Below, piece after piece: positions 21,287 through 45,864 of a DNA stretch of 64,000 bases. Position numbers and translations under genes: made by a program. The stretch lies in IMG/VR virus record IMGVR_UViG_3300045988_034541, positions 32,511-96,510 of that record. One strand, written 5' to 3'. Numbering within the stretch: position 1 is the stretch's first letter; each line of letters begins with the position of its first letter. This DNA is from a virus. The notes under the pieces were generated by a model. That model saw nothing but the letters and a program-made list of their open reading frames with translations. It was not told the origin of the DNA and did not search any database.

Positions 21287-22981
21287 ATGGAAATGAAAGG
21301 AGCACAAAGGCCAAGGAGGCCTTACCCTAATGCCGCACGTCAAAGGCGGGATGAGAATAAACCTAAGTTTGTGGATAATAATCAGTTATTCATAGACCAG
21401 TTTGTTAATCTTAAGAAATGTCTTCAGCCACGTACCTACGTGCAAGTGGCTAAAGATATGTATCCTTTATGGAAAGCTAATCCATTACTATGTACTAAGT
21501 TTACTGCATATACGAGAATGATAACTCGTAAATGTAGAATAATTACCCCGGAAGGAGTTATACAACTTGATACACAGCAAGGAGAAGGTTTGAAGAATGA
21601 AGGTATAATGAGAATGTTGTGGTTGGCAATCTATCACAAACCCACATTCCATGCCAACATTGCTTATTTTGCAGCAGCTGGATGCTGGAAAGATTTCATT
21701 ACTATGATGGCTTTAGATGTTCAACTCCATGGCTTTAAGCACAGATTGGATTGGGACTTCTTCAAGAAAGTCATATTCGCAGGTCTTGCCAACGGTCAGA
21801 CATGTGATTTAGTAAAGAAGTATCTTCCTCGTGTTCGTTCCAGTGTTGCATGTAAGACAGATGAGGCAAAAGCACGTAACACAGTAGCCAAATTCTTGGC
21901 GGAAGGCCTTTATGGTAAACCTAAGGATGAAGGAGACTATTCAACCTATCGTAAATATAGGAAGATGAAGAATAGTGGGAAAGCAGCCCAATGGCAGCAG
22001 TTAATCAGTCAAAAGAAATTCTTGGAAATCGATTTTGACACTGTTACTGGAAAGGCGCTGGCACAGCTAGTAGGCTCTAAATTCCTCAAACATCAAGGTC
22101 TTAAAGAGAAGTATCAGAACTGGTTGAAGAACCGTAAGAAGCCCTCTAATAGCGGATTTCTACATACTCTGTTCAAACCATACGGATTGGATAAAATTGC
22201 CGAAGAGATTCCAGAATTTATGGAAACTTCTATTAATGCAAGTTTCAATGTATTTGTTGATAATGCTAAACGCAATAGAGTAGCTCCGTTGTTGGTAGTA
22301 AGAGATATAAGTCATTCTGCTAATGGTGAGATAGAGAATAGCGAAACATCTGCTTACAGTTTGGGTAAAGCATATGCTTTATATCATTCTGAATTACTTC
22401 CTACAATATTCAAGAACTCCTATGCCGTGTTAGAGGATAACATGGTTCTACGTAAGTTCAAAGGTCAGAATGTCATTGAGAAATGGAAATCTGACAAAGA
22501 AGAAGCATTATGCCAGAATCCTTCTATTATTAATATAGCAGAAATGCTGTGTAAAATGAAAGAAGATTATGGTGTGGATGAAGGAGAGTTCCCTAGAGGC
22601 TGTGTGGTAATTACTAACCATACATATTTTACCAAGTTGAACAACCAAGCATTCGTGGAATTTAAGCAAAGACTGCTTAAAGCAAATTTCAGTAAGGAAT
22701 TTGTAAGAGCATTCAAAGTTATCATTTGGAGAGTTCCTTTAGCATATAAGGGAAGACCTAATGTGGCTTTGGTTCCAGGAGTGTCAAATTGCTTCTTAGT
22801 AAATGGACTTAATAATTCAACATCCTCATTTATTACTGGAGAGAAGAGGTTCCAGGTGCCTAAAACCACTAGAGACATCTTTAAGCATGCTATGAATCAA
22901 GAGTTGCTTAATATGATGATTCTAGAGAAGGATGTTGTCAAGAAGAATGCAAGCGTGCAGAAGAAGCCTGTGAAGGTCTAA
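21287..22981 (+). CDS. hypothetical protein (564 aa)
   Basis: Long ORF; no motif recognised. Confidence 0.55.
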   Translation: MEMKGAQRPRRPYPNAARQRRDENKPKFVDNNQLFIDQFVNLKKCLQPRTYVQVAKDMYPLWKANPLLCTKFTAYTRMITRKCRIITPEGVIQLDTQQGEGLKNEGIMRMLWLAIYHKPTFHANIAYFAAAGCWKDFITMMALDVQLHGFKHRLDWDFFKKVIFAGLANGQTCDLVKKYLPRVRSSVACKTDEAKARNTVAKFLAEGLYGKPKDEGDYSTYRKYRKMKNSGKAAQWQQLISQKKFLEIDFDTVTGKALAQLVGSKFLKHQGLKEKYQNWLKNRKKPSNSGFLHTLFKPYGLDKIAEEIPEFMETSINASFNVFVDNAKRNRVAPLLVVRDISHSANGEIENSETSAYSLGKAYALYHSELLPTIFKNSYAVLEDNMVLRKFKGQNVIEKWKSDKEEALCQNPSIINIAEMLCKMKEDYGVDEGEFPRGCVVITNHTYFTKLNNQAFVEFKQRLLKANFSKEFVRAFKVIIWRVPLAYKGRPNVALVPGVSNCFLVNGLNNSTSSFITGEKRFQVPKTTRDIFKHAMNQELLNMMILEKDVVKKNASVQKKPVKV

Positions 22982-25299: not shown

Positions 25300-25371
25300 G
25301 CCCCATTACTTCAGTGGTAGAAGAGCAAATTCTAAACTTGTATGGCGTTGGTTCGAGTCCAACATGGGGCA
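25300..25371 (+). tRNA. suppressor tRNA, anticodon CTA (reads UAG)
   Basis: Canonical cloverleaf: acceptor gccccat/atggggc, D-stem cttc/gaag, anticodon arm gcaaa-ttCTAaa-cttgt, T-arm gttgg-ttcgagt-ccaac. Confidence 0.75.
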
Positions 25372-25373
25372 CT

Positions 25374-25728: not shown

Positions 25729-26589
25729 ATGGGTGTAATTCAGTAGGTAGAATGCTAGGTTTGGGAACTAAACTTTAGAGTATAACATATGGATTATACA
25801 AAATCTAAAGGTAACATTACAGAACTAACCTGCCTTATGGGATTCATGTCAATGGGATTTGATTGCTCAATTCCTTATGGTGATTGTGCCAGATATGACA
25901 TGATAGTAGATACTGGCGATGAACTTCTTAGAGTTCAATGCAAGTCTTCAAGTAATCCTATTAAGAATGGAATTAGAGATTTAGATGCATTTCATTTTAG
26001 TACAGTCACACAGACTACCAACACCAAAGAGACAATTCGTAGGAGATACGATGATGAGCAGATAGATTACTTTGCAACCTGTTACGATAACAAGGTTTAC
26101 CTTGTTCCAGTAAGTGAGTGTTCAACTGACAAGACATTAAGACTCAAACCACCTGCTAACAACAGTGGTGCTTATAACAAAGCAGAGGATTACCTGTTAG
26201 AGAACATGCTAGGACATAAAGTATCTAATTCTTTTGTTAGGAGTTCAGAGGAATCTGAGCCTTTACCTAAAGTTTATATCTGTTCTCAGTGTAACACTAA
26301 CAAAGTCTCTAAGGCTAATGGTATATGTGTAGAGTGTGCTACTAAGAATGCACAGAAGGTCGAGAGACCCACAAGAGAGCAACTAAAAGAATTAATTAGA
26401 TTTAAACCATTTACTCAAATTGGAAAGGACTTTGGAGTCTCAGATAACGCTGTTAGAAAGTGGTGTAAGAGCTACAACCTTCCAACCAAAACGTCAGATA
26501 TTAAATCTATTAACTCTAATGATTGGATAAATCTCTAAAGCATTAGTTCCTAGACCTAGTTGTCGCCAGTTCGAGTCTGGCTACCCATA
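25729..26589 (+). tRNA. split tRNA-Pro(TGG): 5' part 25729-25766, 3' part 26555-26589, separated by a 788-bp insertion in the anticodon loop
   Basis: 5' half: atgggtg ta attc-agtaggta-gaat g ctagg tttggga. 3' half: cctag ttgtc gccag-ttcgagt-ctggc tacccat a. Joined they form a perfect cloverleaf with the insertion at position 37/38. Confidence 0.6.
25789..26538 (+). CDS. endonuclease-like protein (PD-(D/E)XK-like N-terminal domain, C-terminal Cys4 zinc finger plus HTH) inside the split tRNA-Pro
   Basis: The N-terminal region contains YDMIVDTGDELLRVQCK (a D...E.K-like motif). The C-terminal part has CSQC...CVEC and an HTH (GVSDNAVRKWCKSYNL) typical of homing-endonuclease DNA-binding modules. 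Confidence 0.55.
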   Translation: MDYTKSKGNITELTCLMGFMSMGFDCSIPYGDCARYDMIVDTGDELLRVQCKSSSNPIKNGIRDLDAFHFSTVTQTTNTKETIRRRYDDEQIDYFATCYDNKVYLVPVSECSTDKTLRLKPPANNSGAYNKAEDYLLENMLGHKVSNSFVRSSEESEPLPKVYICSQCNTNKVSKANGICVECATKNAQKVERPTREQLKELIRFKPFTQIGKDFGVSDNAVRKWCKSYNLPTKTSDIKSINSNDWINL

Positions 26590-37578: not shown

Positions 37579-38646
37579 ATGATAAATATAGTTTTAGGTA
37601 GTTTCTTCGGCGATTGCGGTAAGGGACAGACAGTTCACAACTTATGTAACAAGTACATAGGTAAGCGAGAGTCTGTGTTAGTAGTCAGGTTTAGTGGTGG
37701 ACATCAAGTAGGACATACTGTAAAGCATGGAGACATGATGCACACCTTTAGTAACTTTGGCAGCGGAACCTTACTTGGAGTGCCGACGTACTGGTCCGAA
37801 TACTGTACTGTAGACCCAATTACCTCTATGTTGGAGGGTGCAGACTTAGCTAAAATGGGAGTTCATCCCATTGTTCAGTATCACCCTCACTGCCAAGTTG
37901 TAATTCCCTTCGATGTCTATTCCCAAGTTAATAACGAAGAGAACTTACGACATGGTACTGTAGGTACAGGGTTTAAAGCTTGTTTGGACCGAGTTAAGGC
38001 AGGATACAGCTTAACAGTTGTAGATTGTATGAATCCTTACATACTGCGTGAGAAACTAAATGCCATAGTGGATAACTATTACAACATGTCTAGTAAATAT
38101 CCTTCGATAGACCTAGACAACTGGTGTAGGTTAGCACATGCTTATTTCTTACATACAGGTACGGTTAATGAAGATTGCTTGTTGAATTATGATAACCTAG
38201 TGTTTGAAGGTTCACAGGGAATATTGCTTGACCAAAGATTCGGCATAATGCCTTATTGTACTCCGTCTAATACAACTTCACAAAACGCTTACGAGCTGTT
38301 GCGGAAAGTAGGTATACGTAAAGAAATCCAAACTTGTTATGTAACTCGTCCTTATATAACAAGGCATGGTAACGGCCCGTTTCCTTCTGGAATGTCTGTT
38401 AGGGATGTCGATGACCCTAATAATAAGTTCAACGATTTCCAGAAGACGCTTAGGGCTATTGATTTCGACAAAGACCTATTCGCACACAGTGTACGCATTA
38501 ACCGTTCATTTAAGGTTCCTTATAGGAATGAACGAACGGAGAAATTGTACGTATCACATTGGGATGAAGCATCTGACGCAGAGCGAGAAATGCTAGCAAA
38601 TTTATGGATGTCGATACAGCCCATGATATTCGATAAGTTAGTTTAG
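37579..38646 (+). CDS. adenylosuccinate synthetase family protein, short form (PurZ-like candidate)
   Basis: Motifs GDCGKGQ (compare PurA GDEGKGK), GGHQVGHTV (GGHNAGHT), GTVGTGF (IGTTGRGIGP), FEGSQGILLD...TPSNTT (FEGAQGTLLD...TSSNTT) and GNGPFP. At 355 aa it is shorter than the cellular PurA (about 430 aa). Confidence 0.7.
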   Translation: MINIVLGSFFGDCGKGQTVHNLCNKYIGKRESVLVVRFSGGHQVGHTVKHGDMMHTFSNFGSGTLLGVPTYWSEYCTVDPITSMLEGADLAKMGVHPIVQYHPHCQVVIPFDVYSQVNNEENLRHGTVGTGFKACLDRVKAGYSLTVVDCMNPYILREKLNAIVDNYYNMSSKYPSIDLDNWCRLAHAYFLHTGTVNEDCLLNYDNLVFEGSQGILLDQRFGIMPYCTPSNTTSQNAYELLRKVGIRKEIQTCYVTRPYITRHGNGPFPSGMSVRDVDDPNNKFNDFQKTLRAIDFDKDLFAHSVRINRSFKVPYRNERTEKLYVSHWDEASDAEREMLANLWMSIQPMIFDKLV

Positions 38647-45749: not shown

Positions 45750-45832
45750 GCGGTTGTAGTGTAAAGGAGGGCACATCACTAATTTTAGTATGCGCACAAG
45801 TGATAGATTGGGTTCGATTCCCGACAGCCGCT
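45750..45832 (+). tRNA. tRNA-like gene with an 18-nt anticodon loop (isotype undetermined)
   Basis: Good acceptor (gcggttg/cagccgc), D-arm, T-arm (ttggg-ttcgatt-cccga) and anticodon stem tcact/agtga, but the loop is aattttagtatgcgcaca. Confidence 0.4.
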
Positions 45833-45864
45833 CACCCTGAACCCTGTAATTCTAATCCTATAAG

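Follow-up and report, generated by a model that had tools for sequence, protein, structure and literature searches.

Textbooks describe the tRNA introns of bacteria as self-splicing ribozymes and restrict the splicing of tRNA introns by proteins to archaea and eukaryotes. We analyze here a 788-nt element that interrupts a tRNA-Pro(UGG) gene in viral DNA (64 000 nt, positions 32 511 to 96 510 of IMG/VR record IMGVR_UViG_3300045988_034541; this whole stretch is called the window below). The element is filled by a single open reading frame (ORF) for an endonuclease, and its ends pair across both junctions with the anticodon loop. With roughly even confidence, we read it as a ribozyme-less, protein-dependent mobile tRNA intron whose helix holds the exon ends in register.

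Its closest known counterpart is the I-Ssp6803I group I intron of cyanobacterial tRNA-fMet, with which the window element shares the endonuclease family (PF11645; PDB 2OST), a tRNA anticodon-arm target, an anticodon-loop location, and mobility. That intron is a self-splicing ribozyme at position 33/34 with its ORF as a passenger (PMC13011429), whereas the window element has no ribozyme, is ORF-filled, most likely lies at 36/37 (35/36 in other members of its family), adds a four-cysteine (Cys4) plus helix-turn-helix (HTH) module to the nuclease, and is borne by a phage.

In architecture, the closest systems are archaeal introns of the bulge-helix-bulge (BHB) type that contain endonuclease genes: both kinds are ORF-filled and ribozyme-less, and their ends extend the anticodon stem by pairing. 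As in archaeal and eukaryal protein-spliced introns, the intron pairs with the anticodon loop, and any splicing would likewise be performed by proteins. A BHB motif places two 3-nt bulges, with 4 bp between them, at the splice sites. The window element differs in lacking this motif, in its site, which is most likely not 37/38, in its bacterial hosts, which have no known EndA, and in encoding a PD-(D/E)XK rather than a LAGLIDADG enzyme.

Free-standing phage endonucleases of the T4 SegB type (PMC2330249) are also tied to tRNA arrays and target the tRNA genes of relatives, but they are intergenic and disrupt nothing, whereas the window element lies inside an anticodon loop with a junction-spanning helix. 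Yutin et al. (PMC7886860) describe crAss-like phages rich in introns but no tRNA introns, and in our full-text literature searches we came across no account of endonuclease inserts without a ribozyme in the tRNA genes of phages. The class of inserts described here is apparently both large and undescribed.

A precise insertion into an otherwise intact tRNA-Pro gene

The interrupted gene and its insert lie on the + strand. Exon 1 (25729–25764, possibly reaching 25766 through a GA ambiguity) supplies the 5′ acceptor strand, the D arm, the 5′ strand of the anticodon stem (25755–25759), and loop positions 32–36, with the anticodon TGG at 25762–25764. Exon 2 (26553–26589) supplies positions 37 and 38, the 3′ strand of the anticodon stem (26555–26559), the variable loop, the T arm, the 3′ acceptor strand, and the discriminator A; CCA is not encoded. 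Joined in silico (25729–25764/66 with 26553/55–26589, the join reading GCTAGGTTTGG|GACCTAGTTG), the halves form a perfect tRNA-Pro(UGG), a regular cloverleaf that ARAGORN calls tRNA-Pro(tgg), in agreement with the initial annotation of this DNA. The native stretch, with introns allowed, is called tRNA-Pro i(38,788), but an ARAGORN scan of the whole window with introns allowed did not call the split gene, and the Rfam tRNA model matches its 3′ half alone, weakly (17.9 bits). A plain ARAGORN scan, without introns, lists 28 tRNAs between 17.8 and 52.8 kb of the window and no tRNA-Pro among them, making the split gene the sole detectable tRNA-Pro of this phage.

The 788 bp are a precise, mobile insertion into a gene that is intact in relatives, because two IMG/VR contigs (L104 and L105) carry an uninterrupted tRNA-Pro(UGG) at the same locus. 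Retrieved by searching IMG/VR for the joined anticodon-arm sequence, these contigs have flanks 87–96% identical to the window, and their tRNA-Pro is identical to the window's joined halves; this comparison with related phages, which the initial annotation called for, is the strongest confirmation of the split gene. The occupied allele recurs in IMGVR_UViG_3300045988_042445 (98% protein identity), and no target duplication accompanies the insertion relative to the empty-site alleles. The same kind of presence/absence polymorphism, at one exact site in collinear relatives, separates Enterococcus phage EFP01 (KY549443, Herelleviridae), which has a 463-nt member inside an unannotated tRNA-Asn(GUU), from 29 Schiekvirus genomes in which the site is empty. 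That an endonuclease gene entered an intact tRNA gene, as had been proposed, is therefore borne out by empty-site alleles.

The element spans 25765–26552 if placed at 36/37 (equivalently 25766–26553 or 25767–26554), since the dinucleotide GA is common to both junctions and the sequence alone permits 36/37, 37/38 or 38/39. Among Pro-type loci with differing junction bases (L004, L020, L023, L026, L027, and L040), G37 is restored by 36/37 only, and comparison of EFP01 with its intron-less sibling EFDG1 places that insertion exactly between U36 and A37 of tRNA-Asn(GUU). Because relatives with distinguishable flanks need 36/37 to keep G37, the window insertion most likely also lies at 36/37, with the intron at 25765–26552. 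The canonical archaeal and eukaryal site 37/38, to which the insertion had initially been assigned, is permitted in the window by the GA ambiguity but is disfavored by these relatives. Members in Ser, Gly, Asp, and Arg tRNAs are inserted at 35/36. ARAGORN identity calls with introns allowed were unreliable for such genes (EFP01 "Asp 35/36" is Asn 36/37; L026 "Ser" and L040 "Gln" are Pro) and were corrected by hand or from empty sites.

A homing endonuclease that leaves no room for a ribozyme

The ORF (25789–26538, 249 aa) comprises a PD-(D/E)XK nuclease domain (aa 4–135), a Cys4 zinc ribbon (C165, C168, C180, and C183), and an HTH-like helical domain (about aa 195–248). It matches PF11645 (PDDEXK_5) over residues 4–135 with E = 5.8e-20 and 72.1 bits (Pfam curated cutoff 26.1), matches I-Ssp6803I (PDB 2OST) by sequence with E = 8.7e-7, and is closest to 2OST in fold, with the D...QxK catalytic motif conserved. 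We found 442 homologs; in an alignment of 37 sequences, D37, Q50, K52, and all four cysteines never vary, and conservation of the helical C-terminal module extends to its final residues. The same Cys4 plus HTH module is fused to HNH and GIY-YIG nucleases in other proteins.

Judged from these matches, the product is a homing endonuclease of the PF11645/I-Ssp6803I family with a C-terminal Cys4 plus HTH module, as the initial description of an insert-filling ORF with these domains had anticipated; of the families suggested for comparison, homing endonucleases fit, and similarity to EndA is limited to generic features of the fold. The I-Ssp6803I family is catalogued as a homing endonuclease family with a 17-bp target (PMC3424549), and the precise occupied and empty alleles suggest that the uninterrupted tRNA gene is the DNA cleavage target here.

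A group I catalytic core (P3–P9) takes at least ∼180 nt. Non-coding sequence in the insert amounts to 38 nucleotides, 24 upstream of the ATG and 14 downstream of the stop codon, and the early argument that this is too little for a group I or group II core holds. The smallest group I intron of bacterial tRNA genes in a recent survey has 184 nt (PMC13011429), and nuclease-only members of our family have inserts of just 450–485 nt, ∼40–60 nt of them non-coding. Covariance-model searches, one of the checks originally proposed, gave no Rfam match to intron or ribozyme families, whether in the window (E ≤ 10) or in 20 related loci (E ≤ 0.1). Because the group I model RF00028 can overlook group I introns (PMC13011429), we also scanned the ORF directly for synonymous constraint in 17 full-length homologs. 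Third-codon positions are saturated (identity 0.37–0.57 in conserved codons), relative entropy is 0.39–0.75 in every 15-codon window, and no window is frozen or constrained at synonymous sites; the coding sequence therefore conceals no RNA core. Free-standing homologs have ORFs of the same length as the inserted ones.

In group I introns the 5′ exon ends in U, which forms the U·G pair of P1, and the intron ends in G. Exon 1 here ends in G36 (or G37/A38), not U; placed at 36/37, the intron ends in ...CCTA, and a terminal G is given by the 37/38 reading only. Group II features are likewise absent, with no Domain V/VI match in Rfam and an ORF that encodes a PD-(D/E)XK nuclease, not a reverse transcriptase.

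A helix that runs through both junctions

The anticodon stem (25755–25759 with 26555–26559) continues without a break at either junction into a 12-bp helix, Pa. Its 5′ strand (tttgggaactaa, 25760–25771) consists of anticodon-loop positions 32–38 and the first intron bases. In its 3′ strand (ttagttcctaga, 26543–26554), the last intron bases pair with the anticodon, and G37 and A38 pair with U33 and U32. Counted from the stem, the pairs are U32-A, U33·G, U34-A, G35·U, G36-C, G37-C, and A38-U, followed by five intron pairs. Pa thus includes two G·U pairs and is present in both minimum free energy (MFE) and centroid folds. Beyond it lies a 1 × 2 internal loop, with unpaired A25772 opposite unpaired C26541 and A26542, and then an 8-bp helix, Pb, up to the stop codon: its 5′ strand (ctttagag, 25773–25780) ends 8 nt upstream of the start codon, and its 3′ strand (ctctaaag, 26533–26540), a perfect complement, contains the stop codon TAA (26536–26538).

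In the predicted structure, the transcript can fold so that the ORF forms the "loop" of one long hairpin. The full 861-nt precursor retains the acceptor, D, and T arms together with the extended helix in MFE and centroid folds (z = −5.2; −7.2 for the 129-nt mini-precursor). The suggestion that the halves are expressed separately gains no support, as promoter- or terminator-like signals inside the element do not exceed chance and the precursor folds as one tRNA.

The layout recurs in ∼30 loci, always with A opposite CA, in an anchor search that left the identity of the unpaired bases unconstrained; in the alignment (A2), the A column and the CA columns (C33 and A34) are invariant. Across 25 distinct anchored mini-precursors, 94.7% of cells are paired, compared with 60.8% in shuffles and 32–46% in slid registers; both sides change in 20 of 22 pairs, and none of 500 shuffles reached the observed covariation, with the caveat for both measures that the anchors were chosen by pairing, yet coincide with the invariant motif. 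The 12 anchored positions beside the loop hold 205 Watson-Crick, 41 G·U, and 9 A·C pairs (P = 6e-6), and five of the nine A·C pairs fall at position 12, which is the tRNA 32·38 position in most loci. This excess of G·U over A·C indicates that complementarity is selected in the + strand RNA and not as a DNA inverted repeat, which disfavors transposon-like ends.

The intron 3′ end is re-tuned to the host anticodon in Pro, Asn, Ser, Gly, Asp, and Arg tRNAs. The A/CA motif with its flanks (5′-CAA A CUU / 5′-AAG CA UUG) provides the sole invariant non-coding bases. The distance from this loop to the junctions varies from 6 to 10 bp, for which reason we dropped the idea of a fixed ruler. In an Asn-type subclass (EFP01, L049, L059, and L069), A/CA is replaced by CUGA opposite CUGAUGU, a sequence that resembles a box C/D kink-turn.

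The sequence cctaga just before exon 2 had been read as a duplicate of the 3′ anticodon stem. This does not hold: in L007 the anticodon stem is ctgca/tgcag and the element still ends in ttcctaga, and cctaga is the strand that pairs with loop positions 32–38. Its persistence beside unrelated stems rules out both a target-site and a stem duplication. The helix is absent from free-standing full-length homologs (47–50% identity) that adjoin an intact tRNA-Pro(UGG) in L021, L024, and L025, and from the free-standing homologs in My1 and FKP10. It is therefore a property of the inserted state and not of ORF expression within a tRNA array.

A wider class of inserts in phage tRNA arrays

Starting from the contexts of homologs at 76%, 59%, and 57% identity and from 80 IMG/VR loci, we found PF11645 genes exactly within the anticodon loops of Pro-UGG, Asn-GUU, Ser-UGA, Gly-GCC, Asp-GUC, Arg-CCG, and other tRNA genes. 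Roughly 38 of ∼55 distinct nuclease-domain loci lie inside anticodon loops; the remainder are free-standing between tRNA genes or are rare destructive insertions. The architecture recurs in ∼30 independent phage lineages, including the cultured EFP01, and its carriers comprise both Firmicutes phages and members of gut crAss-like lineages. When the insert is excised in silico, a recognizable tRNA body results in 23 of 24 loci with the helix; L004–L006 have an aberrant T arm and no ARAGORN call. The hosts are bacterial: EFP01 infects Enterococcus, the DnaB of the window phage is closest to those of human-gut crAss-like phages, and one window ORF has an SLT domain.

In EFP01 (L100; 1426–1961 and 2424–3010), the interrupted tRNA-Asn and its 5′ exon are absent from the GenBank annotation of KY549443, EFP01_109 is annotated from a later start, and a ROOL RNA (265 bits) lies ∼500 nt downstream in the tRNA region. 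Free-standing homologs adjoining intact tRNA-Pro in L024 (∼1160–1200 and 1945–1975) and L025 (∼2055–2080) are flanked by a direct repeat, (T/C)AGTAGATAGTT, which could be a cassette boundary or a regulatory site.

A second ribozyme-less class of anticodon-loop inserts occupies the same phage tRNA arrays, with ORF-less (44–76 nt) and ORF-bearing (600–900 nt) forms. ORF-less examples are L067:1933–2057, L072:578–697, L064:2163–2315, L047:845–993, L027:2710–2855 and 187–325, and L063:1464–1605; the ORF-bearing ones (L070/L071 in Trp, L078 and L088 in Met, L011 in Arg-UCG) encode GIY-YIG or HNH nucleases with the same zinc finger-HTH module. Their termini form a ∼7-bp helix like an acceptor stem and a T-arm-like hairpin (e.g. 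ATAAG-TTCAAAT-CTTAT), with N-CCA-N just before exon 2. These features suggest a tRNA minihelix mimic that may be processed by RNase P or other tRNA enzymes. A tRNA-Glu(UUC)-like gene at L088:338–461, spanned by the Rfam tRNA model (49.8 bits), has a 51-nt ORF-less hairpin in its anticodon loop and fits neither class cleanly.

Inserts of 180–230 nt with group-I-like sequence, at U|..G|AA in tRNA-Leu(UAA) and related tRNAs (L054:29–342, L062:2638–2928 and 1949–2205, L136:204–480, and L145:194–474), probably represent true group I introns; occurring in contigs of the same kinds, they make useful internal comparators. In Enterococcus phage vB_OCPT_Bop (L103, 590–1417), and also in phage 113, the HNH gene hegA replaces the anticodon arm of tRNA-Gln; in Bop it leaves 5′ and 3′ tRNA-Gln remnants, a destructive endonuclease insertion. 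Similarly, in L054 an orphan tRNA 3′ half comes after a PF11645 ORF.

Genomic neighborhood of the split gene

A TROVE/Ro60-like protein (DUF2828/DUF7788, weak vWA_Ro60; 21287–22981) heads the tRNA array of the window, and its counterparts lie directly upstream of the interrupted tRNA-Pro in L001 (1–1261) and L007 (24–1703). Between the window and L007, this protein has 35% identity (E = 5e-109). A weak match to the Y RNA-like YrlA lies near the L007 gene (L007:4354–4421). The arrangement may represent a module for RNA quality control or repair.

Two genes upstream of the split tRNA-Pro lies a tRNA with anticodon CTA (25300–25372), an amber suppressor that ARAGORN labels "Pyl". The window's own large ORFs nearby have no in-frame TAG. 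The endonuclease ORFs of many related loci have in-frame TAG or TGA, and those phage lineages therefore use stop-codon recoding. A tRNA-like gene at 45750–45833, in which the acceptor, D, and T arms look good but the "anticodon loop" has 20 nt (taattttagtatgcgcacaa), is called by ARAGORN as tRNA-Val(cac) with a 13-nt intron and is the sole tRNA-Val candidate in the window.

An ORF at 37579–38646 (355 aa) resembles adenylosuccinate synthetase (PF00709, E = 2e-33) and is shorter than cellular PurA; it may be a PurZ-type enzyme of 2-aminoadenine (Z-base) genomes. A pooled scan of 34 mid-size window ORFs also gave one with a ferritin-like domain (E = 4.5e-13) and one with a ribosomal L7/L12 C-terminal domain (E = 5.9e-6).

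Discussion

At the DNA level, the endonuclease presumably cuts tRNA-Pro anticodon-arm alleles that are uninterrupted in co-infecting relatives, and repair copies the cassette into the cut allele. If the element is a protein-dependent mobile intron, a reading to which we give an even chance, its transcript might be processed as follows. The helix would keep both exon ends in register while two endonucleolytic cuts, offset by 3 bp where the site is 36/37 and by 1 bp where it is 35/36, free the ORF-bearing RNA to serve as endonuclease mRNA. The cutter may be the PD-(D/E)XK protein that the element encodes, which would treat the RNA as a mimic of its DNA site, or a general host double-strand RNase. 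A host or phage RNA ligase, for which RtcB- and Rnl-type enzymes are candidates, would then seal the nicked anticodon loop and restore tRNA-Pro. We dropped precise DNA excision by the endonuclease because, reasoning from the sequences, the two junctions would be left with 3-nt overhangs that do not complement each other.

We favor the intron reading for four reasons. The helix runs through the junctions and must re-evolve with each new anticodon. The inserted state is the family majority, and tRNA bodies stay intact although synonymous sites of the ORF are saturated, which is consistent with neutrality to the host, as is the lack of another tRNA-Pro in the 28-tRNA array of the window. The second ribozyme-less class, with its ORF-less inserts, shares the same arrays. 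Finally, endonucleases that target the most critical site of a gene usually live in spliced elements, and this insertion hits the most critical site of a tRNA. Between a novel protein-dependent intron and insertional inactivation, both raised in the initial annotation, sequence cannot settle the matter, but a junction helix specific to the inserted state tilts it toward the intron.

More tentatively, and with somewhat less than even confidence, these inserts may constitute a third kind of tRNA intron beside group I/II and BHB introns, marked by a continuous extension of the anticodon stem with an internal loop, removed by protein in bacterial cells and sealed by a ligase. The remover could possibly be the intron's own PD-(D/E)XK endonuclease, acting on an RNA mimic of its DNA target.

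Several observations weigh against splicing. We know of no protein-only tRNA splicing pathway in bacteria or phages. A Pfam search of the 54 window ORFs, which represent part of the genome, detected none of the domains EndA, RtcB, Rnl, and Pnkp. The helix lacks bulges and hence is not an EndA substrate, and its 6–10-bp distances offer no simple ruler. As the carriers occur both in Firmicutes phages and in gut crAss-like phages, any machinery must be autonomous or universal. No ORF-less derivative with Pro-type termini was found in IMG/VR. Both the window lineage and EFP01 acquired the insertion recently, as it is sporadic there and the exons equal those of the empty alleles, making their intact exons weak evidence, and endonuclease genes do insert destructively into phage tRNA genes (hegA of Bop, L054). 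A 2026 survey of bacterial tRNA introns lists group I and rare group II introns only (PMC13011429).

Many of these points also suit an unspliced selfish insertion, the main rival reading, which is a real possibility, though one we would not back. Here the tRNA would be inactivated, the loss of an accessory tRNA tolerated, and the element maintained by gene drive in co-infections. The helix would serve the endonuclease mRNA: together with the anticodon stem-loop it would make ∼25 bp of double-stranded RNA with an internal loop, which could be an RNase III-type processing site or a stabilizing clamp, so that mRNA lying within a tRNA-operon transcript is freed or protected. Phage RNase III hairpins, such as those of T7 early mRNA, are similarly long, imperfect duplexes with a small asymmetric internal loop and flank ORFs in polycistronic transcripts, whereas half of the window helix is tRNA exon sequence and its cleavage is hypothetical. 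Sporadic presence with empty sites in near-identical relatives, demonstrable destruction of tRNA genes by other endonucleases, splicing enzymes that are neither known nor detected, termini that never persist without the ORF, and the aberrant T arm of L004–L006 all favor this explanation. An mRNA-centered role also fits a helix that ends at the stop codon and 8–20 nt from the start codon, and horizontal spread fits an endonuclease that is more conserved between the window and L007 (57% identity) than its TROVE-like neighbor (35%). A processing helix could, however, use intron sequence alone, whereas every lineage pairs through the junction with positions 32–38, with a 3′ end that had to re-evolve for each new anticodon. 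Free-standing relatives in the same tRNA arrays do without the helix, and the majority status of the inserted state and the 23 of 24 intact bodies, at saturated ORF divergence, are not what inactivation would lead one to expect.

A tiny new autocatalytic RNA, in which the A/CA loop and flanking pairs, possibly docked on the tRNA body, promote cleavage and ligation, is very improbable. Autonomy would benefit a mobile element that spreads across distant hosts, and A/CA is all that stays invariant outside the ORF despite saturated divergence elsewhere. Against this, the motif sits 6–10 bp from both junctions, the junctions lie within regular helix, the Asn-type subclass swaps the motif for CUGA/CUGAUGU, no Rfam ribozyme matches the window or the 20 loci, and we know of no self-splicing RNA this small.

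A split tRNA acting in trans, with halves separately transcribed or matured, and an archaeal-type BHB intron cut by EndA are still less credible. Anticodon-intron pairing and an ORF-filled intron do resemble archaeal endonuclease-bearing BHB introns, and the PD-(D/E)XK fold is distantly shared with EndA. However, the hosts are bacterial, internal promoter and terminator signals are absent, and neither the MFE and centroid folds nor the 25 aligned loci show a break or 3-nt bulges in the helix at either junction. Absent bulges and the generic nature of the EndA-like fold similarity led us to reject assignment to the BHB/EndA type.

Lastly, an ordinary group I (or II) intron with a ribozyme that overlaps the ORF or went undetected is almost certainly not the answer: PF11645 endonucleases do occur in group I introns of cyanobacterial tRNA-fMet (PMC13011429; PMC3424549), RF00028 is fallible, and some of the same contigs have probably genuine group I introns in tRNA-Leu(UAA), but permissive Rfam searches and unconstrained synonymous sites effectively rule out such a ribozyme, as do the 38 non-coding nucleotides, an ORF no longer than its free-standing homologs, an exon 1 end of the wrong base, and, with the 36/37 site, an intron end of the wrong base as well.

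The analysis has a practical side as well. Standard tRNA annotation misses interrupted genes (the EFP01 tRNA-Asn is unannotated, and several others are mislabeled by ARAGORN), and phage tRNA repertoires are therefore undercounted. The splicing question is directly testable in EFP01 against its intron-less sibling EFDG1.

For phage biology, the finding amounts to a large family of tRNA inserts that have no ribozyme yet share a strongly covarying, junction-spanning RNA structure; the family extends over dozens of lineages and many tRNA identities, with one or more cultured phages among its carriers. If the inserts are not spliced, phage tRNAs would be a routine sacrifice to endonuclease genes, which would make part of their mRNA processing signal from the gene they destroy. 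If they are spliced, bacteria or phages would possess an unrecognized protein-based route of tRNA splicing, and homing endonucleases would have found a way into genes without a ribozyme or an intein.

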